Source of the DNA: a bacterium
GTDB taxonomy: Bacteria > Patescibacteriota > Minisyncoccia > Phycocordibacterales > UBA9973
Assembly (NCBI GenBank): GCA_021824345.1
Contig: JAKAKW010000011.1
Location: 9,074 to 73,073 of the forward strand
Direction: 5' to 3'
Length of the DNA: 64,000 nucleotides
The position numbers were made by a program, and so were the translations under genes. Below are positions 7,400 to 46,893 of this stretch, in pieces. The first letter of the stretch is position 1, and each line of letters opens with the position of its first letter. The notes beneath the pieces were generated by a model, which was not told the DNA's origin, did no database searches, and worked only from the letters and a program-made list of their open reading frames with translations.

Positions 7400-7412
7400 T
7401 ACGGCGAAAAAC

Positions 7413-7446
7413 AAAAATCCTCCGGACTTTTCCGGAGGATTTTTGG
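7413..7446 (+). terminator. Rho-independent terminator of the giant surface-protein gene
   Basis: aaaaatcctccgga cttt tccggaggatttttgg: 10-bp GC-rich stem, 4-nt loop, T-run. Confidence 0.75.
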
Positions 7447-7458
7447 TATACTGTATTT

Positions 7459-8259
7459 ATGGCAAAAAGAACATTGATCGCCGGAAACTGGAAGATGAAT
7501 CCTCCATCCGTCCGGGAAGCGGAAAAAATTTTGAAGGGGGTAATGGCGCGAACGGCGGGACTCCGCAAGACAGAGATAGTGATATTTCCGCCCTCCGTTT
7601 TTATCGAAAGGCTGGTGAAAATTGCGGGCCGGAGCAAAATACGGCTGGGAGCGCAGGATGTATCGGTCCAATCAGGCTCGGGAGCCTTCACCGGCGAGGT
7701 TTCCGCGGATATGTTCTATGATTCCCGGGCCAGATATGCGATAGCGGGACACTCGGAACGCAGAAATCCGTCCGCAGGCAGAGGGGAAAGCAATCACGAG
7801 ATCAATTTTAAAATAAAAGCGGCGCTTGCCGCGGGCCTTTCTCCGGTGTTGTGCGTGGGGGAAAGGGAAAGAGACCGCGACCATGCGTACTTGCAGCTCA
7901 TCAAATCGCAGGTGGAGGAATGCTTGAAGGGAATATCCAAAAAATCTATGGAAAAGATGATAATCGCTTACGAGCCCGTCTGGGCCATAGGCAGGAATGC
8001 CGTCCGCGAAGCCGTGCCGGAAGAATTCCAAGAAATGAAAATCTTCATTAAAAAAATACTGGCCGACAAGTTCGGTATAGTTCCGGCGGATACCGTACGC
8101 ATATTGTATGGAGGATCCGTATCGCCGAAAAATGCTGAAGGATTTCTGCGCGAAGGCGAGGCGGACGGTTTTTTGGTCGGAAGAGACAGTCTGTCCCCGG
8201 ACAAATTCGGGCGGATAGCAAAAATCGCGGAAGACGCGGGGCAGTGGCGCCTTTCCTGA
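7459..8259 (+). CDS. tpiA: Triosephosphate isomerase
   Basis: MAKRTLIAGNWKMN...AIAGHSERR...VLCVGE...ILYGGSV: canonical TIM motifs. Confidence 0.9.
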   Translation: MAKRTLIAGNWKMNPPSVREAEKILKGVMARTAGLRKTEIVIFPPSVFIERLVKIAGRSKIRLGAQDVSVQSGSGAFTGEVSADMFYDSRARYAIAGHSERRNPSAGRGESNHEINFKIKAALAAGLSPVLCVGERERDRDHAYLQLIKSQVEECLKGISKKSMEKMIIAYEPVWAIGRNAVREAVPEEFQEMKIFIKKILADKFGIVPADTVRILYGGSVSPKNAEGFLREGEADGFLVGRDSLSPDKFGRIAKIAEDAGQWRLS

Positions 8260-8287: not shown

Positions 8288-9424
8288 ATGAAATCAATAA
8301 TCAAATTGAAAAATCTGAAAGGAGAAACGGCGCTTTTGCGCGCCGGTTTTGACGTTCCCATCAAGAACGGCCGGGTTGCCGATTTCAGAAGAATCAAAGC
8401 CGTTTTGCCGACAATAGAATTTTTGATGAAAAGGGGATCGGTGGTGATAATGGCGCATCAGGGCCGGCCGGGCGGAAAAACAGACGCGCGCTTTTCCCAG
8501 AAACCGGTGGCGCTCGCTTTGGAAAAACTCTTGAAAAAGAAGGTTAAATTCTCGGATGATTGCGTCGGCCCGTCTGCGGAAAGAGCGGTGAAATCCCTTA
8601 AAAAAGGCGAAGTCCTGCTTTTGGAAAATCTTAGATTCCATCCCGGAGAAGAAAAGAACAGTCCGGCTTTCGCCAGGGCGCTTTCCAGGCTGGGGGATGT
8701 CTATGTGGACGATTCATTCCCGGACGCGCATCGCGAGCATGCTTCCATCGTGGGCGTCCCGAAATATTTGCCGGCTTACGCCGGCTTCCGGCTTCTGGAC
8801 GAAATAAAATATTTGTCGGCCTTGTCCAAAGATACCAAGCATCCTTTCCTGTTCATCTTGGGAGGGGCGAAGTTTGAGACCAAATTGCCGGTATTGAAGA
8901 AGTTTTTGAAAAAGGCGGACAGCGTCGCCATATGCGGAGCCTTGGCCAATCAGGTTTTCAAGGAAGAAGGATATGAGACGGGGCTTTCCCTCGTCGAGGA
9001 CAAGAAATACGGATTGTCATCCCTGGCGCGAAATGGAAGAATAATCCTTCCGGTTGACGTCGTGGCGGAGAGTTCAAAGGGGAAAAAAATTAAATCGCCC
9101 TATGAGATTTCTAAAAATGAAAATATGGTGGACACGGGTCCCCAAACGGCGGATATTTTGGAAAAGGAAATAAAAAAGGCAAAAATGATCCTATGGAACG
9201 GACCGCTCGGAAAATCATCAGCGGGTCATCCCGGAAGCACCAAAGACATAATCAAAGCAATCGCCAAAAGCGGAGCGGTTTCGGTCATCGGCGGAGGAGA
9301 TACCATTGACCTCATCGCGGGAATGAAAATGGAAAAGAAATTCACCTTCATTTCCACCGGCGGAGGAGCCATGCTGGATTTCCTGGCCAAAGGGACTCTT
9401 CCGGGCCTGGAAGCTCTCAAGTAG
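8288..9424 (+). CDS. pgk: Phosphoglycerate kinase
   Basis: 378-aa protein with PGK hallmarks (RAGFDVP N-terminus, NGPLG, GGGD/TGGGA C-terminal motifs); directly downstream of tpiA. Confidence 0.9.
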   Translation: MKSIIKLKNLKGETALLRAGFDVPIKNGRVADFRRIKAVLPTIEFLMKRGSVVIMAHQGRPGGKTDARFSQKPVALALEKLLKKKVKFSDDCVGPSAERAVKSLKKGEVLLLENLRFHPGEEKNSPAFARALSRLGDVYVDDSFPDAHREHASIVGVPKYLPAYAGFRLLDEIKYLSALSKDTKHPFLFILGGAKFETKLPVLKKFLKKADSVAICGALANQVFKEEGYETGLSLVEDKKYGLSSLARNGRIILPVDVVAESSKGKKIKSPYEISKNENMVDTGPQTADILEKEIKKAKMILWNGPLGKSSAGHPGSTKDIIKAIAKSGAVSVIGGGDTIDLIAGMKMEKKFTFISTGGGAMLDFLAKGTLPGLEALK

Positions 9425-9444
9425 CCGCCGATTTCCAGACGGGG

Positions 9445-9473
9445 GAAGGGCGGAGGGTTACCCTCCGCCCTTC
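9445..9473. repeat. Family-A palindromic repeat (gaagggcggagggtTaccctccgcccttc, perfect 29-bp palindrome) between convergent pgk and HIT genes; likely bidirectional terminator
   Basis: Read from sequence. The same element recurs at 14454-14482 and 26628-26656. Confidence 0.7.
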
Positions 9474-9493
9474 CTTGCGATGGTTTCGGCCTG

Positions 9494-9904
9494 TCAAAGC
9501 GCTTGGCTGATCTTTTTTGCCACTTCTTTCGCTTCTCCATCGGCATAGTCTCTTCGGCCGTGCCATGGGCCGAAGCCGTCGCTTGAGAGGCGCGGTATCA
9601 CGTGCACATGAGTATGAAATATGACTTGTCCAGCCGCAGAATCGTTGTTCATGGTTACGTTTATTCCGTCCGCCTTGAGCTCTTTTTTGACTGCCATGCT
9701 GATCTTCTTTGCCGCTCGTATCAGCTTGCAAGCAATTTCCTCCGGAGTTTCATATATGTTTTTGAAATGTTCTTTGGGAATGATGAGGGTGTGTCCGATA
9801 TTTACCGGCTTAATGTCCAGAAAAGCAAGAGTATGTTCATCCTCATACACCTTTTCACTGGGTATTTCTCCCTTCACTATTTTACAAAAAATGCAGTCAT
9901 CCAT
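9494..9904 (-). CDS. HIT-family (histidine triad) nucleotide hydrolase
   Basis: Protein MDDCIFCKIVKGEIPSEKVYEDEHTLAFLDIKP...IFHTHVHVIPR contains the HxHxHxx triad. Only the 3' 411 nt of track ORF 9494..10927 is real; the rest overlaps recJ on the other strand. Confidence 0.85.
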   Translation of the reverse strand: MDDCIFCKIVKGEIPSEKVYEDEHTLAFLDIKPVNIGHTLIIPKEHFKNIYETPEEIACKLIRAAKKISMAVKKELKADGINVTMNNDSAAGQVIFHTHVHVIPRLSSDGFGPWHGRRDYADGEAKEVAKKISQAL

Positions 9905-9929
9905 GGGCAAATTATAACACATATTCCAA

Positions 9930-9959
9930 CGTGGGAGGCCTTGCCTCCCACGTTTTTTT
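9930..9959. repeat. Family-B palindromic repeat (cgtgggaggccttgcctcccacg) followed by a T-run, in the divergent HIT / recJ spacer
   Basis: 9-bp stem gtgggaggc / gcctcccac with 3-nt loop, then ttttttt; copies at 25130, 31360, 31422, 37581, 37602. Confidence 0.65.
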
Positions 9960-10018
9960 ATGTGGTCAAATAAAGGCGCGTTCAACGGATTTGCCTTATT
10001 CGTGATAAAATCAACTTT

Positions 10019-11689
10019 ATGCAAAAGTACGGCGAATTGCTGAGAACCCTGCTTGAAAAAAGGGGAATTATGGATCCGGAACAGGCGGAAATATTCTTGA
10101 ATCCGGATTACGAACGGGATCTCTATGATCCCTTTCTGATGAAAGACATGGAAAAGGCGTGCCGGCGCATTTTTGATGCAATACAGAAGGGCGAAAGAAC
10201 GGTGATTTACGCCGACTATGACTGCGATGGAATGCCCGGAGCGGTCATTCTGGAAGATTTTTTTAAGAAAATCGGGTTTGGAAATTACGAGGTGTACATT
10301 CCCGAGCGAAATTCGGAAGGATACGGATTGAACAAGGAAGCCATAGAAAAATTCGCCGAAAAAGGCGCGAGCCTTCTCCTTGCGGTGGACCTCGGTATTA
10401 CTGCGGTGGAAGAAATAGCCTTTGCCAAAGAAAAAGGCATGAATACCATTATAGTGGACCACCACCTTCCGCCGGAAAAACTTCCCGAGGCTTACGCCAT
10501 TCTGAATCCGAAAATAGACGGCTATCCGGAGAAAATGCTTTGCGCCGCGGGAGTGGCTTTCAAGCTGGTGCAGGGGCTTCTTGCCGCCGCGGAAAAAATT
10601 GACACGTTTCCGAAAATCCCCGCGGGATGGGAAAAATGGCTCATGGACATGGCCGGAATCGCCACTCTTTCTGACATGGTTCCGCTTTTGGGCGAGAATC
10701 GGGCCTTGGCGCATTTCGGAATGAAAGTCTTGCGCAAATCTCCCCGGCCGGGACTGCAGAAGCTTCTGCAGAAAATGAGGGTGGAACAGCGCTTTCTTTC
10801 CCCGGACGATATCGCATTTATGGTCGTGCCGAAAATAAATGCGGCCAGCCGGATGGATGATCCGCGCAGAGCTTACGAGCTTCTTTCCACTGATGATCCG
10901 GCTGAGGCCGGAGCGCTTGCGGACCATCTGACCAAGATAAACGACGAAAGGAAAACAATCGTAACGGGCATAATGCGGGAAGTGAACCGAAATTTTGAGA
11001 AAAGGAACACGGAGGAAAGCCTTCGGGAGGTGATAGTGGTTGGCAATCCGAATTGGAAAATAGGGGTTCTGGGCCTGGTGGCCGGCCGGCTTTCGGAAGC
11101 TTATGAACGGCCGGTTTTCGTATGGGGGGCGGACGAAAACGACTGTATCCGCGGGTCCTGCCGTTCCGACGGCTCGGTGTCAGTGGTGGAACTTATGCAC
11201 GAAACAAAGGAGTATTTTACCGAATTCGGAGGACACGAGCTGGCCGGAGGGTTTGCCGCGGAAAGGACCAAGATTCATTTTTTGGAAGACGCTCTGCTTT
11301 CTTCTTTCGCCAAAGTGAAGAGAGAAAAGCCGGAAGCGGCCGCCGATTATGATTTGAAGCTCGGCTTGTCCGATGTGACTATGAAAAACTGGAAGGAACT
11401 CCAGAAAATGGAACCGTTCGGATCGGGAAATCCGAAGCCGGTGTTCTTATTTGAAAATGTGAAGACTGAAAGCGTGAAAAAATTCGGAAAGAATGGCGGA
11501 GAGCATATTGAGATAACTTTCTCGGACGCCGGCGGACGCAAAATTAAAGCCGTTTCTTTTTTTTCCGGCGAAGATTCGTTCAAGGCGCACGTCTTTCCCG
11601 GCTCGTACGCCAATCTCCTGGCCAGCTTCGACCTGTCCCGATTCCGGGGAAGGGAGGAGCTCCGTCTGCGTATTGAGGATATATATTAG
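10019..11689 (+). CDS. recJ: Single-stranded-DNA-specific exonuclease RecJ (short form)
   Basis: DHH family motifs: VIYADYDCDGM, LLAVDLG, IIVDHHLPP, plus the RecJ-type DHHA1 region. Confidence 0.85.
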   Translation: MQKYGELLRTLLEKRGIMDPEQAEIFLNPDYERDLYDPFLMKDMEKACRRIFDAIQKGERTVIYADYDCDGMPGAVILEDFFKKIGFGNYEVYIPERNSEGYGLNKEAIEKFAEKGASLLLAVDLGITAVEEIAFAKEKGMNTIIVDHHLPPEKLPEAYAILNPKIDGYPEKMLCAAGVAFKLVQGLLAAAEKIDTFPKIPAGWEKWLMDMAGIATLSDMVPLLGENRALAHFGMKVLRKSPRPGLQKLLQKMRVEQRFLSPDDIAFMVVPKINAASRMDDPRRAYELLSTDDPAEAGALADHLTKINDERKTIVTGIMREVNRNFEKRNTEESLREVIVVGNPNWKIGVLGLVAGRLSEAYERPVFVWGADENDCIRGSCRSDGSVSVVELMHETKEYFTEFGGHELAGGFAAERTKIHFLEDALLSSFAKVKREKPEAAADYDLKLGLSDVTMKNWKELQKMEPFGSGNPKPVFLFENVKTESVKKFGKNGGEHIEITFSDAGGRKIKAVSFFSGEDSFKAHVFPGSYANLLASFDLSRFRGREELRLRIEDIY

Positions 11690-12471: not shown

Positions 12472-13761
12472 ATGAGAGAAAAAATATTTTATATAGTTTG
12501 CTTCGGATTTCTTTTAGGAACGCTCGCGCGTTCCTTTCTTTTTGTTCCCGCCCTCGCGCCGGATATTCCGGAAGGAACATTTGAGGGCATGGTGGAGGAA
12601 GAACCGGATGCCGGGGAGAATAATCAAAAACTGGTTGTGAAAACCGAAGGAATGAAAGTTCTGGTTACAACGGGGCTGGAGCAATATTTTCGTTATGGGG
12701 ACGAAGTGCGCTTGTCCGGCAAGCCTAAACTGCCGGAAAATTTTGTTACCGACCAGGGCAAGGTTTTTGATTATGTGAATTACCTTCGCAAGGATGGAAT
12801 CAGGTATGTCGTAAGCTATCCGAAAATTGAGATTCTCTCGCGAGGGCGCGGAAGTTTTTTGCGGAATGCGCTTTTCTTTGCCAAAGAAAAGTTCATGGAT
12901 GCTCTCAAAGTTTCCATCCCCAGTCCCGAATCAAAACTTTTGGGCGGACTCATCCTCGGAGACCGTTCTTCTTTCAGTTCGGATATGCGGCAACAATTTG
13001 TGGATACCGGCACTATTCATATCGTGGCTCTGTCCGGGTATAACGTGACTATCGTCGCGGAATGGATCATGAAAATATTTTCGTTTCTGCCTCGCCTGGC
13101 CGGGTTCGGGGCCGGCATCCTGGGCATCATACTTTTTGTAATCATGTCCGGCGGGACGTCCACGGCCGTGCGGGCCGGGATAATGGCGGTATTGGGCATT
13201 CTGGCCAGGGTGCTTGGCCGGCCGTATGAAGCAGGGCGGGGCCTTATTCTGGCCGCCGCGGCCATGTGCCTGGCGAACCCGCTGATCATTGCCTACGACG
13301 CGTCTTTTCAGCTGTCGTTTTTGGCCACGGCGGCCGTTATTTTCGTCCCGCCTCGCATAGAGAAGCATTTTTATTGGATTAAATGGAAATGGCTGCGTGA
13401 AATCACGGTCACCACTTCCTCCGCGTATGTTTGCGTCGCTCCATACATATTTTGGCAGATGGGCAATCTTTCCCTGGTCGCCATTCCGGCCAACCTCCTC
13501 GTTCTGCCGGCCATCCCCCTCACCATGCTCCTCGGGTTCGCCGCCGGTTTCACCGGGCTTCTTTCCCCGATTCTTTCCGCGCCCTTCGGGTATTTTTCAT
13601 ACGCGCTTCTTCATTACGAATTATGGATAATAGGCGCCATATCAAAAATCCCGTTCGCTTCCATAAGCGTCGGGGATTTTCCGCCGGTATCCATCGTTCT
13701 GATCTACGCTTTCCTTATTTTGTGGCTTCTACGAAGTTCTTTTCAATCTCCTCCCAGTTAA
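12472..13761 (+). CDS. comEC: ComEC/Rec2 DNA-uptake channel, N-terminal DUF4131 + competence (TM) domains only
   Basis: Periplasmic OB-like N-terminal region followed by the multi-TM competence domain (GTIHIVALSGYNVTIVAEW...); lacks the C-terminal lactamase domain, which is encoded separately at 14409..15353. Confidence 0.75.
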   Translation: MREKIFYIVCFGFLLGTLARSFLFVPALAPDIPEGTFEGMVEEEPDAGENNQKLVVKTEGMKVLVTTGLEQYFRYGDEVRLSGKPKLPENFVTDQGKVFDYVNYLRKDGIRYVVSYPKIEILSRGRGSFLRNALFFAKEKFMDALKVSIPSPESKLLGGLILGDRSSFSSDMRQQFVDTGTIHIVALSGYNVTIVAEWIMKIFSFLPRLAGFGAGILGIILFVIMSGGTSTAVRAGIMAVLGILARVLGRPYEAGRGLILAAAAMCLANPLIIAYDASFQLSFLATAAVIFVPPRIEKHFYWIKWKWLREITVTTSSAYVCVAPYIFWQMGNLSLVAIPANLLVLPAIPLTMLLGFAAGFTGLLSPILSAPFGYFSYALLHYELWIIGAISKIPFASISVGDFPPVSIVLIYAFLILWLLRSSFQSPPS

Positions 13762-14311
13762 GATTCTGAAAAAACGTGTCAATGTATTTTTTCTTTTCCG
13801 AAGAAGCATAATCGTAAATATATGAGTGTTCCCACATATCCAGGGCCAGAATCCATTTGGCGCCGTTTAATTGTCCAAGATGCTGTTCGTCTATCCAGCT
13901 CGTTACCAGCTGGCCGGTGGCCTGGTCCCAGGCCATTACAGCCCAGCCTATTCCGCGAGTGGCGGCCATTTGCTTGAACGCTTCGATAAATACATCCATG
14001 GGCACATCTTTTTCCAGCTCGGCTTTCAATTTAGAATTTGCGGGCAATGGTTTGGCTCCTCCGGAAAGGGATTGGAAATAATATTCATGATTGCGTACTC
14101 CGTTGAACTCAAAGGCGAAGCGCCGGTGCAGTTCCCCGATCAAGAAAGCGTTGCCCGCAGGATCCTCTTGATAAAGTTTGCCCAGCTTTTCCCGCACCAG
14201 GTTGGCGTTTTTTACGTATCCTGAATACAGTTTCAAATGTTCTTCAATGTTTTTGGCGGAGATCCCCGAGAGTTCTCCGATGTTGAATTTTTTTTCTTCA
14301 AATATTTTCAT
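13715..14311 (-). CDS. sodA: Fe/Mn superoxide dismutase
   Basis: ...HHRFAFEFNGVRNHEYYFQSL...ALDMWEHSYIYDY: both Fe/Mn-SOD signature regions. 3' end overlaps the comEC fragment by 47 nt on the opposite strand. Confidence 0.9.
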   Translation of the reverse strand: MKIFEEKKFNIGELSGISAKNIEEHLKLYSGYVKNANLVREKLGKLYQEDPAGNAFLIGELHRRFAFEFNGVRNHEYYFQSLSGGAKPLPANSKLKAELEKDVPMDVFIEAFKQMAATRGIGWAVMAWDQATGQLVTSWIDEQHLGQLNGAKWILALDMWEHSYIYDYASSEKKKYIDTFFQNLNWEEIEKNFVEATK

Positions 14312-14408
14312 GGTTCTTTAATAGTTATTTATAAAGCATGCATATACTGCTTGTACGGAGCAATACGGCTCCATATTTCAAGCCATTTGCATATCAGCGC
14401 ATTATACC

Positions 14409-15353
14409 ATGAATTCCAAAGCACTTATAAAAAATGAAAAGAAACCGCTTGCCGAAGGGCGGAGGGTAACCCTCCGCCCTTCGGCGCCCCAGAAACCCGT
14501 AAAAATTTTCCCCCTATATGCCGTTTTTGCGCTTCTAGCAATGGCTATTTTCCTGTTTTCGCTTGATTTGCGGAATTCTCGCCGAGGGCTAACTTTTGCC
14601 ATGCTTGACGTGGGCCAAGGAGACGCGCTTTTTATAGAATCTCCGACCGGCACTCGGATTCTGGTGGACGCCGGGCCTCCGCGGAAAATATTGGGACAAA
14701 TGGCAAGGGTAATGCCCGCCCTTGACCGCACTTTGGATGCGGTGATAATCACTCATCCGGATGCCGATCATATTTCCGGATTCGCGGACATTTTGGAAAA
14801 TTATAAAGTAAAAGAAATTTTTGATCCCGGCATCGCGGATGATTCCGCGCTGTATCAGAACATAAAAAAAATTGCGGAAGAAAAATCCGTGCAGAACATT
14901 CCCGCCAGGCGAGGCATGCGGTTAAATATTGGCGGCGGCGCGGTTATTGATATTTTGTTTCCCGACGCTGATGTTCGCGACTGGGAAACAAATGCAGGCT
15001 CCGTGGTGGCGCGCCTCTCTTATGGCGATACCTCCATACTGCTTGCCGGCGACTCTCCGATAGATACCGAAAAAATCATTTTGGCGCAAACACAGAGGAC
15101 GCTTCTCAAAAGTACGGCGCTGAAAGTGGGCCATCACGGTTCCAAAAATTCCAGTTCGGCCGAGTTCATTGAAGCGGTCGCGCCCAAGTATGCTCTCATT
15201 TCCGCGGGCAAAGAAAACAGATACGGCCATCCGGATCCCGCGGTACTGGACATCTTTGAAAAGTCCGGGATACAAGCGTTCCGCACGGACGAACACGGAA
15301 CCATTCTCATGCGCTCCGACGGCAAGACTGAAGCCTTTTCTTTTTATAAATAG
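14409..15353 (+). CDS. comEC: ComEC C-terminal metallo-beta-lactamase domain protein (separate ORF)
   Basis: TM helix then MLDVGQGDALFIESPTGTRILVDAGPP...IITHPDADHISG...GHHGSKNSSS: ComEC-type MBL domain. The start is uncertain: the family-A palindrome lies inside the first 25 codons, so the true start is probably downstream, e.g. the ATG at 14541. Confidence 0.7.
   Translation: MNSKALIKNEKKPLAEGRRVTLRPSAPQKPVKIFPLYAVFALLAMAIFLFSLDLRNSRRGLTFAMLDVGQGDALFIESPTGTRILVDAGPPRKILGQMARVMPALDRTLDAVIITHPDADHISGFADILENYKVKEIFDPGIADDSALYQNIKKIAEEKSVQNIPARRGMRLNIGGGAVIDILFPDADVRDWETNAGSVVARLSYGDTSILLAGDSPIDTEKIILAQTQRTLLKSTALKVGHHGSKNSSSAEFIEAVAPKYALISAGKENRYGHPDPAVLDIFEKSGIQAFRTDEHGTILMRSDGKTEAFSFYK
14454..14482. 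repeat. Family-A palindromic repeat copy (gaagggcggagggtAaccctccgcccttc)
   Basis: Identical to 9445-9473 apart from the central base; lies 45 nt inside the track ORF starting at 14409. Confidence 0.7.
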
Positions 15354-22398: not shown

Positions 22399-25300
22399 AT
22401 GGCTTCCGGTGAAGAATCTAAAAAATCCGAATCTGCTCGGCGCGAAGAGCGGATTTTGGAGTTCTGGAAGGAGAATAAAATTTTTGAAAAAACTCTGGGA
22501 AAGCCGTCCCCCAAGGGGGAATTCGTTTTCTACGAAGGTCCGCCTACGGCCAATGGCAAACCTCACATAGGGCACTTTGAGGCGCGTTCTTTCAAGGATG
22601 CCGTTCCCAGGTACAAGACCATGCGCGGATACCATGTGCGTCGGAAAGGCGGATGGGACACCCACGGCCTGCCTGTGGAGCTTGCGGTGGAGAAAAAACT
22701 CGGGCTTAGTTCCAAAAAGGGGATAGAGGAATACGGAATTGCCAAGTTCAACGAGCAATGCAAGGAAAGCGTATGGGAATATGTGAACCTATGGGAAAAG
22801 TTCACCGAGCGCGTGGGATACTGGGTGGATCAGAAGGATGCCTACGTCACTTACCATAACGATTACATTGAATCTCTTTGGAATATCGTAAAAAAAATAG
22901 ATGAACAAGAACTGCTTTACAAGGATTACAAAGTGGTTCCGTGGTGTCCGCGCTGCGGGACGGCCCTTTCCTCGCACGAATTGGCGCAGGGATATGAGGA
23001 TGTGAAGGATCTGTCGGTGTATGTGAAATTCCGCGTGAAATCTTCGCCTGACGCTTTTGCGAAGGTCCTCGGTTCCCCTCGCACAAAGCTTGCTCCTTCG
23101 GAGCTGGAAGCTCGGCCAGACCATTCGCAAAAGCATTCAGTCGAGGATTTCACATATATTCTGGCATGGACCACTACCCCCTGGACTTTGCCGGGCAACG
23201 TTGCTTTAGCGGTAGGAAAAGATATTGATTACACCGCTTTGCGCGTAAAAGGGGTTTCCGAATTGTATATTCTCGCAAGCGATAGGGTAAAGAGTGTCTT
23301 TGAAGGGCAGGAAATTGAAATTGTGCATGACAACATAAAAGGATCAGATCTTGTCGGCCTGGAATACGAACCCTTGTATCCGTATTTCGCGAACACTCTT
23401 CCTGAGAGCGAAAAGTCCAAACTTCCAAAAGCATACAAGGTTTACGAAGCGGATTTTGTGACAACCGTTGACGGCACGGGCGTGGTGCATACCGCCGTGA
23501 TGTACGGACAAGACGACTTCGTGCTGGGCACCGCTATCGGTTTGCCCAAGCACCATCTCGTGGGTCTGGACGGGAAATTCCTGGCCGGCACTGATTTTCT
23601 TGAAGGAAGATTCGTGCGAGACGAAGATGTGGCAGTGGACATTATCAAAGACCTTGCGCACCGGAACCTTTTGCTAAAGAAAGAAAAGTACGAACACTCA
23701 TATCCTTTCTGCTGGCGCTGCCATACCGCGCTCATATATTACGCGCGGGACTCGTGGTACATAAAAGTTTCAGATCCGCGGATTAAGGAAAAGATGATTT
23801 CTGAGAATGAGAAGATAAACTGGGAGCCGGCGCACATTCGGGACGGGCGTTTCGGAGAATGGCTGCGCGATATCAAGGACTGGGCGATTTCCCGCGAGCG
23901 GTACTGGGGAACTCCGCTTCCGGTGTGGACATGCGAGAAATGCAACCAGAGGATTACCATCGGAAGCATTGAGGAACTGAAAAAGCATACGAAGAAATCC
24001 GGCAATCGGTACTTCTTTATGCGGCATGGAGAAGCAGAGAGCAATGTTAAGGGTATGGTGGCTTGCAGAGTGGAGGATAACGATAATTTAATCGAGGCCG
24101 GGAAACAACAAGTATTGTCTTCGGCAAAACAACTAAAAGAAAAGAATATTGATCTTATTTTCTCCTCGGATATTTTGAGGACGAAAGAGACAGCTGAAAT
24201 TGTTAAAAAAGAAATTAGTACTGAAAAAGAAATAATTTTTGACAAGCGCCTGCGCGAGTGGAACGTAGGAAAATTTGACGGAAAAACATGGCACGAATAT
24301 AAAAAATTTGCGCGCCAACACGATGATTGGTACAGTTTTATCCCTGAGGGAGGCGAATCATTCAAAGATATAAAGATTAGAGTTTTTGATTTCATTTACG
24401 AATTGGAGAATAAATACCAAGGGAAAAATATCTTGATCGTCACTCACCAGGCTCCGATTGTAGTTATTCTTAAGGGTTTAGATAAACTTAATGATGAAGA
24501 TACAAAGGCAGGTGATAGCGATGTGAACTTAAGATTCAAGGGAGGAGAGTTTAAAGAGATAGATTTTACCTTACTTCCCCACAACAAAAACTACGAGCTG
24601 GATTTGCACCGGCCATACATAGACGAGGTTCCGCTGGTCTGCGATTGCGGAGGAAAACTTTCTCGTACACCGGAGGTTATGGACGTCTGGTTTGATTCCG
24701 GTTCCATGCCGTTTGCCCAGGATCATTATCCTTTTGAGAACAAAGACTGGATTGACGATCACGGATATCCGGCTGATTTCATATCGGAGGCCATAGATCA
24801 GACTCGCGGATGGTTCTATACCCTGCACGCCGTGGGAGCGCTTGTGGGGAAGGGCAGGGCATACAAAAATGTAATCTGTCTCGGACACCTGATGGATGCC
24901 GAGGGAAAGAAAATGTCAAAACATATCGGCAACGTAGTGGACCCCTGGGAGATGATAGAGAAATACGGGGCGGATACTTTGCGATTATGGATGTACTCCA
25001 TAAACCAGCCGGGCGAGTCCAAGAATTTTGATGAAAAAACGGTGGTGCTTCTCCACCGGCAAATGTTCGGTCTGCTTTACAATGTGCTTTCTTTCTACGA
25101 GCTTTACCGCGACAAAGAGCTTGAGACGATGGGAGGCAAGGCCTCCCACCGGCCTGCCTCGGAAAATATTCTGGATAAGTGGATAATTACGCGATTAAAC
25201 GAGCTGGAGATTCTGTGCACGGAAAATCTTGAGAAATATAAATTATTGGAACCCGTGCGGGCCATGCGCGATTTCATCGACGATCTGTCCACTTGGTATT

Positions 25301-26016
25301 TGCGCCGATCCAGGGAGCGCATTAAGGACGGGGACAAGGATGCCAAGCGCACTTTGTACTTTGTGTTGAAAAATCTTGCCAAGCTTCTGGCCCCGTTCGC
25401 TCCTTTTGCCACCGAGGATATATGGCAAAAGCTTAAAAGCGATGAGGACCCTGCAAGCGTTCATTTGTCCGAGTGGCCGTACAAGGACCAATCCCTTTTG
25501 CAAAAGCTTTTCGGAAAGAAAGAAAAAGTGGATTACTCAGTGCTGGAAAATATGCGCCGAGCCAGGCAGATTGTGACAATGGGCTTGGAAGCTCGGCAGA
25601 AAGCGGGCATAAAGGTGCGCCAACCGCTCGGACTTTTGAGGATAAAGGATCGGAATCTTTCATCGGAGTATGAAGAGCTCATCAAGGACGAGCTCAATGT
25701 TAAAGAAATTGCCAAAGATGCCGGCCTAGAAGGAGAAGTGTTGCTTAATACTGAAATTACTCCTGAACTTAAAGAAGAAGGCGACTATCGCGAACTGGTT
25801 CGCGCTATTCAGGATATGCGCAAAGAGGCGGGGCTCTTACCGAGCGACATGGTAACGCTTCTTTTGGATACTGATGAATCTGGCGAAAAGCTGGCCAAAA
25901 AATTTGAAGAAGATCTGAAGAAAACTGTTAGCGCCGAAAAAATTGAATTCACGGAAAGCGACGGTCCGGAAATCAAAATCGGCAATTCAGCGTTTAAGAT
26001 AAAAATTCAAAAATAG
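22399..26016 (+). CDS. ileS: Isoleucine--tRNA ligase (type 2) carrying three insertions
   Basis: HIGH (PTANGKPHIGH), CP1 editing (WTTTPWTLPGN), KMSKS (KMSKHIGN). 1205 aa is about 150-200 aa longer than typical type-2 IleS. Insertions at 23062-23128, 24001-24570 and 25130-25148 are annotated separately. Confidence 0.9.
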   Translation: MASGEESKKSESARREERILEFWKENKIFEKTLGKPSPKGEFVFYEGPPTANGKPHIGHFEARSFKDAVPRYKTMRGYHVRRKGGWDTHGLPVELAVEKKLGLSSKKGIEEYGIAKFNEQCKESVWEYVNLWEKFTERVGYWVDQKDAYVTYHNDYIESLWNIVKKIDEQELLYKDYKVVPWCPRCGTALSSHELAQGYEDVKDLSVYVKFRVKSSPDAFAKVLGSPRTKLAPSELEARPDHSQKHSVEDFTYILAWTTTPWTLPGNVALAVGKDIDYTALRVKGVSELYILASDRVKSVFEGQEIEIVHDNIKGSDLVGLEYEPLYPYFANTLPESEKSKLPKAYKVYEADFVTTVDGTGVVHTAVMYGQDDFVLGTAIGLPKHHLVGLDGKFLAGTDFLEGRFVRDEDVAVDIIKDLAHRNLLLKKEKYEHSYPFCWRCHTALIYYARDSWYIKVSDPRIKEKMISENEKINWEPAHIRDGRFGEWLRDIKDWAISRERYWGTPLPVWTCEKCNQRITIGSIEELKKHTKKSGNRYFFMRHGEAESNVKGMVACRVEDNDNLIEAGKQQVLSSAKQLKEKNIDLIFSSDILRTKETAEIVKKEISTEKEIIFDKRLREWNVGKFDGKTWHEYKKFARQHDDWYSFIPEGGESFKDIKIRVFDFIYELENKYQGKNILIVTHQAPIVVILKGLDKLNDEDTKAGDSDVNLRFKGGEFKEIDFTLLPHNKNYELDLHRPYIDEVPLVCDCGGKLSRTPEVMDVWFDSGSMPFAQDHYPFENKDWIDDHGYPADFISEAIDQTRGWFYTLHAVGALVGKGRAYKNVICLGHLMDAEGKKMSKHIGNVVDPWEMIEKYGADTLRLWMYSINQPGESKNFDEKTVVLLHRQMFGLLYNVLSFYELYRDKELETMGGKASHRPASENILDKWIITRLNELEILCTENLEKYKLLEPVRAMRDFIDDLSTWYLRRSRERIKDGDKDAKRTLYFVLKNLAKLLAPFAPFATEDIWQKLKSDEDPASVHLSEWPYKDQSLLQKLFGKKEKVDYSVLENMRRARQIVTMGLEARQKAGIKVRQPLGLLRIKDRNLSSEYEELIKDELNVKEIAKDAGLEGEVLLNTEITPELKEEGDYRELVRAIQDMRKEAGLLPSDMVTLLLDTDESGEKLAKKFEEDLKKTVSAEKIEFTESDGPEIKIGNSAFKIKIQK
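23062..23128 (+). repeat. About 66-nt repeat element inserted in-frame in ileS (encodes roughly AKVLGSPRTKLAPSELEARPDHSQ); second copy at 36154-36215
   Basis: aggtcctcggttcccctcgc...agctggaagctcggccagaccat has a 23-nt identical core and about 75-80% identity over 70 nt with the tatD-rpsF spacer copy. From a remembered T. thermophilus IleS alignment, this IleS has about 28 extra residues between VKFRVK and WTTTPWTLPGN. Confidence 0.65.
24001..24570 (+). other. Inserted histidine-phosphatase (phosphoglycerate-mutase-like) domain within ileS
   Basis: FFMRHGEAESN (RHG catalytic motif), IFSSDILRTKETAEIV, DKRLREWNVG, IPEGGES, IVTHQAPI match the PhoE/GpmB-type histidine phosphatase fold. The insert lies between the conserved PVWTCEKC...ELKKH and DLHRPYIDEV...VMDVWFDSG IleS segments and is AT-richer than the flanking ileS sequence. 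Confidence 0.7.
25130..25148. repeat. Family-B palindrome copy (tgggaggcaaggcctccca) in-frame inside ileS, encoding GGKASH
   Basis: Exact match to the intergenic family-B element (31422-31440); translates as MGGKASH within a variable IleS linker. Confidence 0.6.
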
Positions 26017-26627: not shown

Positions 26628-26656
26628 CCAGGGCGGAGGGTTACCCTCCGCCCTAG
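26628..26656. repeat. Family-A palindromic repeat copy (core gggcggagggttaccctccgccc)
   Basis: Same core as 9445 and 14454; outer arms slightly degenerate. Sits after the NUDIX gene and before a TATAAT-containing promoter region for the next gene. Confidence 0.65.
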
Positions 26657-26717
26657 ACAGCATTGTATATTTATAGCAGTGAAATTTTTAATATTTTCGG
26701 TGGTATAATATAGTGAT

Positions 26718-27362
26718 ATGAAAATCACAAAGCTTGGGCATTGTTGCCTCATTATTGAAGAAAACGGAAAGAGGATTATGACTGATCCGGGTTCTTTTAC
26801 CGCGGAAGAGCAGAAGAAAGAGAAAGATATCGATGTCATTCTTTTTACCCACGAGCACGGCGACCACTACCACCTTGAATCGCTGAAGGAAATTCTGAAG
26901 AACAGTCCGAATGCGAAAATAATCACAAATGCCGGCGTGGGGAAGCTTCTGGACGAAGCCGGCATAAAGTATGAAATCATGCCGGACAAAACTTCCAAGG
27001 AAGTTTTGTCCGGCATAGAACTGGAAGCGCATGACTGCAAGCATGGGGAAATTTTTGAAGAATACGGCCAGGTGCCGAACACCGGCTTCTTTATCGGCAA
27101 GCGCCTATTTTATCCTGGAGACTCATATTACAATCCCGGCAAGCCAGTGGAAATCCTTGCGCTTCCCGTGGCCGGCCCGTGGGCGAAGGTGGCGGACTTT
27201 ATGCGCTATGCATTGGATGTAAAACCGAAAGTATGTTGTCCGGTGCATGATGGCATGCTGGGAAAATATTCCGGGCTTGCGTATTGGGTGCCAGAAAAAG
27301 TGCTTCCTGAGAATGGGATTTCTTTCAAGATTCTTGAAAAAGGCAAAACGGAGGAATTTTAG
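26718..27362 (+). CDS. MBL-fold metal-dependent hydrolase
   Basis: HEHGDHYH (HxHxDH) motif and UPF0173-like layout. Confidence 0.8.
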   Translation: MKITKLGHCCLIIEENGKRIMTDPGSFTAEEQKKEKDIDVILFTHEHGDHYHLESLKEILKNSPNAKIITNAGVGKLLDEAGIKYEIMPDKTSKEVLSGIELEAHDCKHGEIFEEYGQVPNTGFFIGKRLFYPGDSYYNPGKPVEILALPVAGPWAKVADFMRYALDVKPKVCCPVHDGMLGKYSGLAYWVPEKVLPENGISFKILEKGKTEEF

Positions 27363-27961: not shown

Positions 27962-28048
27962 AGCGCCTTATAACAGCCAGCAAGGGCGCCGAACAAATAC
28001 CCTTCGGGCATTTGTTTCCGTCCTCGCTTGTTGTTATAATTACAAATT

Positions 28049-29974
28049 ATGGCAGGAGACTCAGACAAATTAAATCGGCTGGAAGAATTAAAAACAAAGC
28101 TTTCCGGGAAAAATTATCGAATGAAAATCGGCAACCGAGAAGACTTTGTCCATCCATACAAAAGCGAGATATCTGATTCATGGGGAGGAAAAGAAAAAGA
28201 GAAGGAATCATTTTCGGACAAATTTTTTACCCAGACCTCCGCTTTCAAAAAATTTTTCATTTTTTCCATAATATTTTTCATACTTGCGGCCGGGTTCGCC
28301 GCTTTCACTTTTTTCTTCAAGGGCAATACCATTTCCAACAGCAATATCGGAATATCCGTGCTGGGCAATCCATTTGCGGCCGGCGGGGAGCCGCTTTCTC
28401 TGCAAATAGAAATTACGAACAAAAACAGTTCGCCTCTCGAGCTGGCCGATCTTTTGGTGGAGTATCCGAAAAGCGCTTCGGACAGCCTGGCTTCAAACGC
28501 TGAAAGGCAAAGAATAAACATCGGCACCGTTCCCGCCGGCGGGGTGCGGGATGAGAATGTAACCGTGGTGCTTTATGGCGAACAAGGAAGCGTGAAGCCG
28601 GTGAAAATAACTCTGGAATATCGAGTGGAAGGATCCAACGCCATCTTTGTGAAAGAGAAGGACTATCAAGTTTCCATCAACTCCACTCCTTTGTCTCTTT
28701 CCATTGATGTCCCTCCGAACGTCAGTCCGAATCAGAATGTTACCTTGAACATAAAAACCACATTGAATTCCACCATACCCGCAAAGAACATATTGGTCAG
28801 CGCGGACTACCCGGTGGGATTCCAGTTTGTATCGGCCAATCCCGCTCCGTCTTTCGGGAACAATGTCTGGACCCTTGGAGATCTGGCGCCCGGAGTGGAA
28901 AGGGATATTTCCGTTACCGGAAAAATAATAGGGGCGGCCAGCGGAGAGGACAAGACTTTTCACATATACAGCGGTTCGGAGAGCGATACCGATCAGTCAA
29001 AAATAGGCATAATTTTCAATTCACTTTCTCAGACGATAGCCGTGGAGAAGCCTTTCATTGCCGCCATGCTCTACCTCAACGGATCATATCAGGATCAGTA
29101 TGCGGTAGACGAAAGCACTCCTTTGGTGGGGGAGATACATTGGGCCAACAATCTTGATACCCAAGTAAACGATATGCGAATTACCGCCAAGATTTCCGGC
29201 AACGCCATGGATCCCGCTCAGATATCTTCCCAAGACGGGTTCTACGATTCCACCAAGGATTCCATCGTCTGGGATAAAAATTCGGACAGCGATCTTTCAC
29301 AGGTGGCTCCGGGCGGATCCGGGGTGGTGAAATTTACCATGTCTCCGCTGCCTCTCTACGGATCAAACGGACTCCTGTCCAATCCTTCCATCCGCATAGA
29401 TGTGTCGGTCTCGGGGAAACAGCCTCTTTCGGGCAATGCCTCCACCGATTTGCAAAATTCAGAATCAAAAACAGTTAAAATAATTTCGGATGTGGGATTG
29501 TCCGCCCAGGCCTTCTATTCTTCCGGACCATTTCAGAATTCCGGACCGGTTCCGCCGAAAGTCGGACAGAAAACCACTTACACTGTCACCTGGTCCGTGA
29601 CCAATACGGCCAACAATATATCCAAGGCGCAGGTAAAATCTTCTTTGCCTCCATGGATAGATTACGCCGGGATAGTTTCTCCCCCTTCAGAGGATTTCAG
29701 CTATAATCCTTCCACCAAGCAATTGGTTTGGAATGTCGGAAACATCGCCAAAGGGACGGGTATCACCGGCGGCAGCCGGCAAGTGAGCTTCCAAATAGAG
29801 TTCACGCCGTCGCTCTCCCAAGTCGGGGCCGCTCCCACCCTGGTGAACGACGCCGTTTTGACCGGGCATGATGATTTTGCTAATGTAGACGTGACGGTGA
29901 ACAAGACCGCCTTGAGCACCAGGCTCGGCAGTGATCCGAATTTCCCGGCCAGCGGAGAAAGGGTAGTGCAGTAG
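28049..29974 (+). CDS. Hypothetical membrane-anchored extracellular repeat protein
   Basis: Short charged N-terminus, one TM helix (FFIFSIIFFILAAGFAAFTFFF), then about 550 aa of beta-rich Ig/CARDB-like repeats; no catalytic motifs. Confidence 0.65.
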   Translation: MAGDSDKLNRLEELKTKLSGKNYRMKIGNREDFVHPYKSEISDSWGGKEKEKESFSDKFFTQTSAFKKFFIFSIIFFILAAGFAAFTFFFKGNTISNSNIGISVLGNPFAAGGEPLSLQIEITNKNSSPLELADLLVEYPKSASDSLASNAERQRINIGTVPAGGVRDENVTVVLYGEQGSVKPVKITLEYRVEGSNAIFVKEKDYQVSINSTPLSLSIDVPPNVSPNQNVTLNIKTTLNSTIPAKNILVSADYPVGFQFVSANPAPSFGNNVWTLGDLAPGVERDISVTGKIIGAASGEDKTFHIYSGSESDTDQSKIGIIFNSLSQTIAVEKPFIAAMLYLNGSYQDQYAVDESTPLVGEIHWANNLDTQVNDMRITAKISGNAMDPAQISSQDGFYDSTKDSIVWDKNSDSDLSQVAPGGSGVVKFTMSPLPLYGSNGLLSNPSIRIDVSVSGKQPLSGNASTDLQNSESKTVKIISDVGLSAQAFYSSGPFQNSGPVPPKVGQKTTYTVTWSVTNTANNISKAQVKSSLPPWIDYAGIVSPPSEDFSYNPSTKQLVWNVGNIAKGTGITGGSRQVSFQIEFTPSLSQVGAAPTLVNDAVLTGHDDFANVDVTVNKTALSTRLGSDPNFPASGERVVQ

Positions 29975-31352: not shown

Positions 31353-31446
31353 CGGGAGAGTGGGAGGCCTTGCCTCCCACTTTTTAATATGTGTCCTGCC
31401 AGGCCACGACTTCTAGGAGTGGGAGGCAAGGCCTCCCACTCTCCCG
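31353..31446. repeat. Pair of family-B palindromes in inverted orientation with extended 28-bp arms, flanking a 37-nt spacer
   Basis: cgggagagtgggaggccttgcctcccac (31353-80) ... agtgggaggcaaggcctcccactctcccg (31418-46); MITE-like or nested-hairpin architecture between glyQS and the M16 peptidase gene. Confidence 0.65.
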
Positions 31447-37556: not shown

Positions 37557-37578
37557 CGAATTTTATAAGTTTTAATGA

Positions 37579-37630
37579 AGGTGGGAGGCCTTGCCTCCCT
37601 AAAGGAGGCAAGGCCTCCCACCTTTTCTTT
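37579..37630 (+). terminator. Terminator of the rpsF-ssb-rpsR operon built from two abutting family-B palindromes
   Basis: ggtgggaggccttgcctccc taaa ggaggcaaggcctcccacc followed by ttttctttat. Confidence 0.7.
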
Positions 37631-38213: not shown

Positions 38214-40415
38214 TTAACCGCCCGCCTGTTCCGAGAACTTTTTTCGGATATCCTTCAAAATCTGGCCCGCGATTTTCGGATTTTCTTTCAAAAATGTCCG
38301 AGTGGAATCGTAGCCCCGTCCGAGCTTCACTTCCTCTTCGCCATCCGGCTTGCCCGCCTGCCCGGTTGGCTTGTATGAATACGAACTGCCGGACTTTTCC
38401 AAGATCTTAAACTTTTCTCCGAGGGCGATGAGTTCGCCTTCTTTGGAGATGCCTTCGTTATAAATGATGTCGAATTCCGTCTGCTTGAACGGCGCGGCTA
38501 CTTTGTTTTTTACCACTTTCACTCGTGTTCGCGATCCCACCACTTCTTCTCCTTTCTTTATTTGGGCGATGCGCCGGATGTCCATTCGAACACTTGTGTA
38601 AAACTTAAGAGCCTTGCCTCCGGGCGTTGTTTCCGGCGAGTTGCTGACCAGGCAGCCATCCGCAAAATAATTGTGGTTATCAGCGACGCTTATATCAAAT
38701 CTTTGCCGGCTTATCCTCTGGCCATCATGGTACGGCGTACGGGTTCTGATTTCTTTTATTATCATCGGGCGCAATATCTGGCTTTGCTTTGATTGTTGAG
38801 GATCCGTCTGATGATAGCGCCCGCGGTATTTTTCAGGAAGCTTGTATTCCATGGACTTAGGAACGAAAGGGGATATCAGTTCAAAGAATTTATCCGACTC
38901 TGCGGCACTAAAACCCAGCACTTGATATTCTCCGCATTTCCTCCATTTGGGCGCAATATCATAGCGGGCGAATATCCGGTTGATTCTGTCAACGCTCTCC
39001 GGCTGATTTCCGAAGGCGTTGGCGTACAGCCCGGCTCTCGGCCGCCGCGCGTACCATTTTCCTTTCCATTCTGAAAGTCCGGTCTGCATTGTTCCGTCTC
39101 CGCAGTACCATAAAGCTATCATGCGAGGAGTAATTTGCTCCACCAAAAACTCCGGCACGATCTTTTTTTGTTGCGGATAAAACAGTCCGTGTAGGTCTCC
39201 GATGCGCAGAAGATGTTTGGTTTCCACAATGGCATTTCCCCTAGAATTTTCCATTACGACATTGCTGGCGATATCGCCCAATTCCTCTGCGAGCCATGAC
39301 ACGTATTGGGATTGTTCTGCTCCATGTTCCTCCCTGAAATATGCGGTTTGTTCGTTAAATTTCTTAATGTTTCCATCTCCCAGCAAAGAGCCGATGATAA
39401 TCTCCTCTTGTTCCGGGGAGAGGTCTATATTATTTATATTCACTGATATCTCATCTCCGGCTTTCAGTTCCTTGGCCTTTTTCCAGCCAGCCGGCGTATA
39501 TATTTTGTGGTCGGGAGTGCAGGAAAATCCTCTTCGTCCGTTTCCCGTATGGTTTTGAACAAAAAACTGCAAGAATGAATCCGTTTCTCCGTTTATGTGC
39601 CAGTCAGTTATGAACTTTGCTTCTACGCATTTCTTTTCAAAATTATAAGAAAGCACCTTCACTTTTTTAGTTTGATTGACAATTTTCCCGATTTTTTCTT
39701 TCGTTCCGTCGGCCAGCAGCACTTTCGTATCGTAGGAAAAACATCCGAACATCACCCCGATCTGCATTCTGATTTGGTTTATGAAAATCACTACGGTCTT
39801 GCTTCGCGCCACGATTGCCGTGAGCTTGCGCAGAGCTTGGGACATAAGCCGGGCCTGCTTGCCCACATGATATGCTCCCATATCTCCCTCGATTTCATCT
39901 TTTGGAGTAAGGGCTGCCACCGAGTCCACCACCACCACGTCAATCTTGCCGGTGCGCACAAGCGATTCCACTATTTCCAGCGCCTGTTCTCCGGTATCCG
40001 GCTGGGAAATCAGGAGTTCGTTTATGTTGACGCCGAGACGTTTGGAATATTCCGGATCCATGGCATGCTCCGCGTCAATGTACGCGCATATTCCGCCTTT
40101 CTTTTGCGCCTCCGCCACTATATGCAGGGACAGGGTAGTCTTCCCGCTGGACTCCGGGCCGAAAATTTCGATAATCCTTCCGCGGGGAATGCCTCCGACC
40201 CCCAAGGCCATATCCAGGCCGATTGAGCCCGTGGGTATTACGTTCACATCCACCTTCGGGGTATCCCCGAATTTCATAATAGTGCCTTCGCCAAACTTGG
40301 TCTGCAGGGCTTTCAGGGTGTCTTCCAATCCTGAAGCGTTTCCGCCTTTTCCGGCGGAACCCTTTTTTTCTTCACTTATTTCCTTCTGGGGGTCGGTTTT
40401 TGTTTTTTTAGGCAT
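38214..40415 (-). CDS. recA: Recombinase RecA interrupted by a 368-aa intein
   Basis: N-extein has Walker [10 protein letters not shown] and ...[11 protein letters not shown]-extein resumes [23 protein letters not shown].... Between them is a Cys1...VSN intein with LAGLIDADG motifs. Confidence 0.9.
38640..39743 (-). mobile_element. RecA intein with LAGLIDADG homing-endonuclease domain
   Basis: Starts [14 protein letters not shown] (block A, Cys1), ends [11 protein letters not shown]|S (terminal Asn, +1 Ser). Internal [11 protein letters not shown] and [18 protein letters not shown] motifs. 1104 nt = 368 codons, in frame, at the MFG|SPETT site. Confidence 0.85.
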
Positions 40416-46823: not shown

Positions 46824-46861
46824 TCTAGCTTTGGCATAGGTCCAGTACAATAAAAGTACGC

Positions 46862-46893
46862 AAAAAACCGCCTTCGGGCGGTTTTTTGTTTTT
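46862..46893 (+). terminator. Rho-independent terminator of the surface-protein gene
   Basis: aaaaaaccgcc ttcg ggcggttttttgtttttg. Confidence 0.8.

Follow-up and report, generated by a model that had tools for sequence, protein, structure and literature searches.

The closest described systems are the REP and REPIN repeats of Enterobacteria and Pseudomonas, repetitive extragenic palindromes that are mobilised by RAYT Y1 transposases (PMC3116915, PMC3337134), and the Rickettsia palindromic elements (RPE), palindromic repeats that occur both between genes and in frame inside genes (PMC10969869). For CPR/Patescibacteria, our full-text literature searches returned no report of REP-like families or of in-frame palindromic insertions. 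Genomes of this group are about 1 Mb in size, densely packed and regarded as repeat-poor. Here we describe a short GC-rich palindrome, termed family A, in a window of 64,000 nucleotides (the whole stretch of DNA under study), which was analysed together with 10 kb on each side, 82.5 kb in all (219-kb contig DAICBP010000002.1, MAG GCA_027428375.1). The homologues of PGK, whose best named matches come from Paceibacterota, Nomurabacteria and Parcubacteria at 60-66% identity, together with those of the ComEC-type lactamase, place the host in CPR/Patescibacteria, a host that differs from those of REP and REPIN. With moderate confidence, we read family A as a REP-like repeat of one Paceibacteria-type CPR species, limited to this lineage and inserted secondarily, and not as an ordinary terminator.

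The GC-rich core of family A, AGGGCGGAGGGT-N-ACCCTCCGCCCT, is found at three sites of the window, and with up to six mismatches allowed it occurs exactly five times in the 82.5 kb and in none of 20 shuffles. A 29-mer pattern, GAAGGGCGGAGGGT-N-ACCCTCCGCCCTTC, is exact at 9445-9473 and 14454-14482 and had no match in 100 dinucleotide-preserving shuffles. Copy 1 (9444-9474, GGAAGGGCGGAGGGT-T-ACCCTCCGCCCTTCC) is a perfect palindrome with 15-bp arms, equidistant, at exactly 19 nt, from the stops of pgk (9424) and HIT (9494). Copy 2 (14451-14485, GCCGAAGGGCGGAGGGT-A-ACCCTCCGCCCTTCGGC), likewise perfect with 17-bp arms, falls within the called Lactamase_B ORF (14409-15353), 42 nt from its start, and is also upstream of the SOD gene, about 44 nt from the extended -10 box of that gene (14401-14409, minus strand). 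Copy 3 (26630-26654, AGGGCGGAGGGT-T-ACCCTCCGCCCT) has 12-bp arms, follows the NUDIX stop (26602) by 27 nt and is in turn followed, after 49 nt, by the TATAAT of TGGTATAAT (26701-26709), the extended -10 box that belongs to the next gene (26718); none of these palindromes is assigned to a strand. The two remaining copies are located upstream on the same contig. One of them, the nusA/PPase copy (GGGGCGGAGGGTTACCCTCCGCCCC, L014 8218-8242, equal to window positions -1070 to -1046), carries two outer differences and lies 23 nt past the nusA stop and 14 nt ahead of the H+-PPase ATG, and the other (L014 6141-6165, window -3147 to -3123), with three mismatches, is a decayed copy 16 nt after the H+-PPase stop, followed by a separate hairpin with T-run about 50 nt further on. 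All five copies fall within 30 kb, with a nearest distance of about 2 kb between them, and the following 46 kb are without a family-A copy. The consensus unit is (A)GGGCGGAGGGT-N-ACCCTCCGCCC(T), or (A)GGGCGGAGGGTNACCCTCCGCCC(T), invariant over 23-25 nt, so that each copy consists of this stem and 0-5 further complementary bp that differ between copies.

An earlier note on this DNA had listed three copies with a common 14-bp stem and near-identical flanks. Its count is right for the window, with the third copy at 26630-26654 and not at 26628-26656; its stem length is borne out by copies 1 and 2, whose arms are even longer, but not by copy 3, in which positions 26628-29 and 26655-56 are off the pattern. 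The gene contexts that it gave are correct, namely copy 1 between the convergent pgk and HIT genes, copy 2 in the 5' end of the Lactamase_B gene (ComEC C-terminal type) and copy 3 after NUDIX. The same is true of the peptide GRRVTLRP, which, read from the sequence, results from one reading frame of the palindrome in either orientation. The flanks, however, are unrelated between copies once the palindrome is left, and no base is conserved in either orientation; the GAA/TTC common to copies 1 and 2 belongs to the stem.

Since the flanks are unrelated, the shared unit is the palindrome alone. Target-site duplications were not consistent: the only instance is a 7-bp direct repeat, AGAAACC, that borders one copy (P = 0.04, uncorrected for the five tests made), the four others having none, and no conserved flanking tetranucleotide was found at the copies. 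A MITE or larger mobile unit was rejected, because the unit comprises only the palindrome, its surroundings are unrelated and target-site duplications are missing at four of the five copies. Solitary half-sites with at most one mismatch are absent from the 82.5 kb, and every occurrence of the exact 10- and 12-nt half-sites, on either strand, is inside a palindrome. Most half-site near-matches stem from a run of GGCGGAGG-containing internal repeats in the gene of a 1911-aa CARDB-containing surface protein (2372-2630), which is unrelated to the palindrome.

These half-site counts bear on the proposal that the arms are DNA uptake sequences in inverted pairs, in the style of Neisseria DUS or Haemophilus USS. 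Such pairs are likewise identical short inverted sequences downstream of genes, and the organism has DNA-uptake genes: the window includes a split ComEC, and relatives encode type IV pilus genes, with T2SSE/T2SSF genes of pilus type adjoining the same locus. Moreover, inverted DUS pairs acting as terminators are known. DUS and USS occur at roughly 1 per kb, however, and the five copies in 82 kb remain far under this density, by about two orders of magnitude, and exact half-sites never stand alone on either strand. We consider uptake sequences extremely improbable, the restriction of exact half-sites to palindromes throughout the 82.5 kb being what rules them out.

Owing to the single central base, each copy is predicted to fold into a hairpin whose stem of 11-16 bp closes on three loop nucleotides (TTA or TAA). 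For the DNA hairpins, the predicted energies are -18, -22.4 and -13.9 kcal/mol for copies 1, 2 and 3, respectively (z -5.5 to -10), and for the RNA hairpins within their spacers about -26 to -38 kcal/mol, with -37.6 kcal/mol for copy 2. The whole pgk-HIT spacer (9425-9493, 69 nt, no strand assigned) forms one long imperfect hairpin around copy 1, with a predicted RNA fold of -44.8 kcal/mol (z -5.1). On the plus strand, four copies have T as their central base and one has A, without a consistent relation to the direction of transcription. A search of the window against Rfam gave no match at gathering thresholds, and a permissive search of 9380-10020 returned sub-threshold generic hairpins only; membership in an Rfam RNA family was thus rejected, as nothing reached the gathering score.

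The outer part of the stem differs copy by copy (GGAA/TTCC, GCCGAA/TTCGGC, A/T and G/C) and is complementary in every case. A variable yet complementary outer stem points to a hairpin rather than a duplex site, and this weighs on the alternative that the palindrome is the double-stranded site of a dimeric protein, be it a regulon operator or a regionally clustered chromosome-organising site like parS, Noc-NBS or matS. A protein site would account for the perfect 11-1-11 dyad symmetry, for the presence of five of five copies inside 30 kb and none in the next 46 kb, and for the distance of exactly 62 nt, shared by two copies, from the palindrome centre to the TATAAT downstream in an identical TGGTATAAT box, with TGATATGnAAAT common after the box. 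Against this, the stem is extended from 12 to 17 bp by copy-specific complementary bases, which fits a hairpin better than a fixed footprint, three of the five copies lie in 3' regions without a nearby promoter, the neighbouring genes (pgk, HIT, nusA, PPase, NUDIX, ComEC-lactamase) are functionally unrelated, and the syntenic sister genome described below has no site. The sequence also presumably bears no resemblance to the conserved parS consensus. Overall, we hold a protein-binding site to be very unlikely.

The window has three extended -10 boxes of the sequence TGGTATAAT. The two boxes at 62 nt (14401-14409, minus strand; 26701-26709, plus strand) are among them, and at both the palindrome is in T-centred orientation, with TGGTATAATnnnnTGATATGnAAAT in common. 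This spacing may be due to chance, to a shared promoter consensus or to a composite module; a repeated unit made up of palindrome, spacer and promoter was rejected, since the intervening spacer does not align, and the spacing is treated as a coincidence or as promoter consensus. In addition, extended -10 boxes of the form TGnTATAAT at 9911-9919 (minus), 26701-26709 (plus) and 28032-28040 (plus), belonging to HIT, the gene at 26718 and the gene at 28049, respectively, end 6-8 nt before the ATG, which suggests that leaderless mRNAs are common in this organism.

Considering their genomic context, four of the five copies lie between genes although gene calls make 94.1% of the DNA coding (P = 5.8e-5); their distances from the stop codons are 16, 23, 19/19 and 27 nt. 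The association with gene 3' ends, which the earlier note had put forward for checking, accordingly holds for four copies, all 16-27 nt after stops, and not for copy 2, which is found in an ORF 5' end instead. Such a placement invites the view that family A represents preferred terminators or insulators, intrinsic or U-tract-independent, whose identity was maintained by selection or gene conversion and did not arise by proliferation. The symmetric position of one copy, 19 nt from each of two convergent stops, speaks for it, as do the extreme stability of the hairpins, the location of the next gene's promoter after copy 3, and the sister pgk-HIT spacer, which also harbours a strong, different palindrome and suggests that a hairpin is apparently wanted there.

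T-runs in the transcribed direction are, however, absent after all five copies, where the downstream sequences read ctaagaggcaga, ggacaagaaaag, ttgcgatggttt / cccgtctggaaa, gccccagaaacc and agacagcattgt, although bona fide canonical terminators with hairpin and T-run exist in the same DNA at 7412-7445, 9928-9961 and 46861-46893. A consensus terminator scan likewise listed neighbouring terminators and none of the five family-A copies. The canonical intrinsic (rho-independent) terminator was therefore rejected, as the hairpin is present and the U-tract missing at five of five copies, and the bidirectional terminator that had been thought likely for copy 1 is not upheld, because neither strand has a U-tract at 9444-9474. 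Furthermore, the 14 nt between the nusA/PPase copy and the ATG contain no -10 box and leave no room for a promoter, so that the PPase gene would have to be transcribed through the hairpin; the H+-PPase gene is probably co-transcribed across this copy, and termination right ahead of a gene that needs read-through would be hard to reconcile with a terminator. Without a U-tract, and with read-through needed at no fewer than one copy, family A is not a canonical intrinsic terminator. Nor does a terminator role of any kind agree well with the H+-PPase 3' end, where the likely true terminator is the separate hairpin with T-run 50 nt on and the family-A copy has decayed, with copy 2, which occupies the 5' end of a coding sequence, is upstream of a divergent promoter and has no obvious termination role, or with the 23 identical nucleotides, which structure alone does not demand. 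Taken together, we regard terminators or insulators as an unlikely explanation. The earlier note would have given up its REP-type family had all copies been found immediately after stop codons and followed by T-runs; with no T-run at any copy and one copy inside an ORF, this proposal survives.

We then consider the REP-like repeat in the light of related genomes. The gene order TIM, PGK, HIT (minus strand), RecJ, RNase H, ComEC-N, SOD (minus strand), Lactamase_B and SHMT is conserved in relatives. Here pgk and HIT are separated by 69 bp, compared with 2 bp on the P0009 contig (by gene calls) and with an overlap of 17 bp in the distant AT-rich relatives L020 (GC 34%) and L022 (GC 39%), although the PGK and HIT protein ends are homologous to those of the relatives; the pgk-HIT spacer is thus extra DNA. 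GC-rich hairpins were found in neither L020 nor L022. A sister genome (GCA_027428395.1, GC 47%) with the same gene order, whose RecJ and IleRS are 76% and 78% identical, respectively, is free of family A over 20.9 kb of syntenic DNA. The sister lactamase has 292 aa, and a spacer of 46 bp separates it from SOD. A different palindrome, with 18-bp arms, occupies the pgk-HIT spacer of the sister, and another, with 20-bp arms, is in frame in a variable loop of its recJ. Absence from the orthologous spacers of both the sister and the distant relatives indicates that the copies are secondary insertions into minimal or overlapping junctions. As far as these comparisons reach, the palindromes appear to be derived, lineage-specific and of fast turnover, and the clade seems to tolerate them inside proteins.

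A scan of 185,579 species-representative genomes yielded ten single matches in unrelated and mostly high-GC genomes, the JGI metagenomes yielded one match and the IMG/VR viral contigs none; the source genome is in none of these collections. Since only isolated matches in unrelated genomes were obtained, the family is specific to the lineage. Compared with the sister contig L027, one assembly of the sister species (L026 1-3885) has an IS481-family transposase (LZ_Tnp_IS481 + rve) in place of the upstream flank of the pgk-HIT palindrome. The two sequences part 36 nt from the palindrome, owing either to a rearrangement or to chimeric assembly at this repeat.

Copy 2 offers a case in which the palindrome seems to have entered a protein. 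The Lactamase_B ORF starts with ATG at 14409 and encodes 314 aa, and the palindrome is in frame and reads LAEGRRVTLRPSA, within the peptide KKPLAEGRRVTLRPSAPQK that covers the palindrome region. Among the 119 listed homologues, 69 are exactly 289 aa long and most measure 286-293 aa. In the 14 closest or named homologues that were aligned, a tail of 2-10 residues precedes the transmembrane helix, and none of them has the extension of about 24 residues; the corresponding 24 or so extra codons (EKKPLAEGRRVTLRPSAPQKPVKI, 14436-14507, plus strand) are part of the N-terminal tail of the Lactamase_B protein and are not in homologues. Between palindrome and transmembrane helix there is no ATG, GTG or TTG, and the next ATG (M45) would split the helix in half. 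The lack of an alternative start before the helix points to in-frame translation of the palindrome, which we consider the most economical reading of copy 2, as a prediction only. In this case, the N-terminal tail of a membrane-anchored ComEC-type lactamase would have taken up copy 2 in frame.

In this locus, ComEC is split into separate genes for DUF4131+Competence (12472-13761, plus strand) and Lactamase_B (14409-15353, plus strand), with a Fe/Mn superoxide dismutase gene on the opposite strand (13715-14311) between the two halves, overlapping the first by 47 bp. The split arrangement is conserved in the relatives L020, L027 and the P0009 contig.

Within the species, Logan and ENA contigs are 100% identical at all three window sites. 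The copies are present in independent assemblies of several runs, and an assembly artefact was ruled out by these assemblies from other sequencing runs. An empty site, as expected for a presence/absence polymorphism, was not found among the strains and assemblies compared, and without strain polymorphism mobility is inferred only from relatives that are about 55-78% identical in the compared proteins. The one diverged strain contig that was informative, L025 (about 95% identical overall), retains copy 1 with intact arms and with the central base changed from T to A; over the surrounding 660 bp it otherwise differs only by three SNPs, which all lie in the flanks within 21 nt of the centre. These SNPs lengthen the helix, shifting the predicted spacer hairpin from -44.8 to -51.4 kcal/mol, and with three SNPs in number they give a hint of selection for pairing or of a template-switch mutational bias, both of which they fit. 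In the same contig, a 340-bp stretch of the TIM gene (7870-8212) is about 20% diverged, compared with 1-2% in the flanking genes, a mosaic pattern that suggests recombination between diverged lineages.

Another ENA contig from an independent assembly (L031, 1048 bp) ends inside copy 2 (14451-14485), which shows that the palindrome is repetitive or hairpin-prone enough to break de Bruijn assembly. Breaks caused by the palindrome may fragment MAGs of this lineage.

Set beside the described systems, family A shares several traits with REPs. It is a short GC-rich palindrome (25-35 nt, compared with 20-40 nt for REPs), repeated extragenically and limited to a lineage; the copies occupy mostly 3' regions between convergent or co-directional genes, form hairpins as single-stranded DNA or mRNA and decay individually. 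Of the traits that define the REP class, both the stem-loop palindrome and the extragenic predominance (four of five copies) are present; as to copy number, REPs reach tens to hundreds per genome, and the 82.5 kb covered here contain five copies of family A. Family A differs from REPs in being perfect with a single central base, whereas REPs are imperfect and oriented, and from REPINs, which are mainly inverted doublets with a spacer, in that all five copies are isolated singletons and lack a GTAG/CTAC-like 5' tetranucleotide such as REPINs use for cleavage. Therefore, of the REP/BIME-type family that had been proposed, the dispersed REP-type repeat, also absent from orthologous sites of relatives, is retained and the BIME mosaic is not.

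REPIN/RAYT systems have a cognate single-copy RAYT gene with REPs on its flanks. In the 82.5 kb no RAYT gene is found: gene calls and Pfam matches of this region contain no Y1/RAYT (IS200/IS605) transposase (PF01797), and it encodes only housekeeping genes and a Gp49/HTH toxin-antitoxin pair. With singleton copies, perfect palindromes without a flanking tetranucleotide and no Y1 transposase in this region, family A is not assigned to the RAYT-mobilised REPIN class. Like RPE, family A would contribute an in-frame peptide in tolerant regions, as in the lactamase N-terminal tail, joined by the palindrome in the sister recJ and a family-B copy (see below) in the IleRS variable loop, and the host genome is small and reduced. 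RPE are, however, about 100-150 bp long with a conserved peptide, compared with the 25-35 bp of the family-A unit, and only a single in-frame family-A case is at hand, the translation of which rests on the lack of an alternative start codon. SPRITE repeats also combine a dispersed repeat with a strong stem-loop core after genes, such that repeat family and terminator-like structure coincide, yet they are longer and their terminator-like hairpin has a T-run, whereas family A has no T-run and nothing outside the stem.

If family A is such a REP-like repeat, each copy would, when transcribed, give rise to an extremely stable 3-nt-loop hairpin. By analogy with REPs in E. coli operons, this hairpin could hold back 3'-exonucleases, or it could cause partial pausing or termination where transcription units end. 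The likeliest role of the retained copies would be that of a hairpin at mRNA 3' ends or between cistrons, which blocks exonucleases or makes transcription pause in part. Spread might proceed via a hairpin or single-strand intermediate, through a Y1/RAYT-like enzyme encoded elsewhere or through template-switch copying; template switching would explain perfect palindromes with copy-specific outer pairs. The decayed copy beside a true T-run terminator is a signature of birth and death. Retention could also be explained by host selection instead of selfish spread, given that four of the five copies are placed where a terminator or RNA-stabilising hairpin is useful. On present evidence, family A does not reveal a new molecular mechanism.

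A lineage-specific repeat of this kind opens spacers of 60-170 bp where the genes of relatives overlap, and it can enter proteins. If the lineage-specific reading is correct, selfish or mutationally generated micro-repeats would be active even in reduced genomes, and the copies would provide a handle on transcription-unit boundaries in organisms that apparently use leaderless mRNAs. In practical terms, the palindrome accounts for recurrent spurious ORFs and peptides containing GRRVTLRP and for MAG contig breaks, and it is usable as a species- or strain-typing marker.

Besides family A, the same DNA contains further palindromes. Family B (GTGGGAGGC-CTT/AAG-GCCTCCCAC) is found in the window at 9928-9954, 25130-25148, 31359-31381, 31417-31441 and 37578-37624, and at 6071-6093 of L014. 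Several of its copies are followed by T-runs and look like real terminators. The copies at 31359 and 31417 (31359-31441) form a REPIN-like inverted doublet with the complementary outer flanks GCGGGAG/CTCCCGC, so that inverted doublets as in REPIN exist in the same genome; the one at 37578-37624 is a nested doublet, and that at 25130-25148 is located in the variable loop of IleRS. A family-B variant in the sister shows the compensatory change GGGAAGC/GCTTCCC and has one copy in frame in recJ (L027 6373-6416). A third palindrome type, GGGCGGCTCCCCGAT-ATGC-ATCGGGGAGCCGCCC, is present at 293-326 in the divergent spacer between nusA and the Por_Secre_tail gene, and its inner stem CCCCGAT/ATCGGGG is shared with the pgk-HIT palindrome of the sister (L027 3921-3960).

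A broader interpretation, possible though in our judgement doubtful, would be that this streamlined CPR lineage carries several families of perfect GC-rich palindromes (A, B and the CCCCGAT type) that spread without RAYT by hairpin or template-switch copying, turn over rapidly between sister genomes and have repeatedly been absorbed in frame into ComEC-lactamase, RecJ and IleRS. Were this true, they would constitute undescribed self-propagating micro-elements that expand intergenic DNA and remodel proteins in genomes regarded as nearly repeat-free.

The palindromes are unevenly distributed along the contig, since neither family A nor family B occurs in the downstream 46 kb (window 38000-64000 and L017 to +9 kb), which has a lower GC content (39-49%) and encodes RecA, FtsK and a large polysaccharide or O-antigen-type cluster. 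The RecA gene there (38214-40415, minus strand) contains an intein with a LAGLIDADG endonuclease domain, and the 1205-aa IleRS further upstream (22399-26016, plus strand) contains an inserted His_Phos_1 (histidine phosphatase) domain, as it does in the sister genome.
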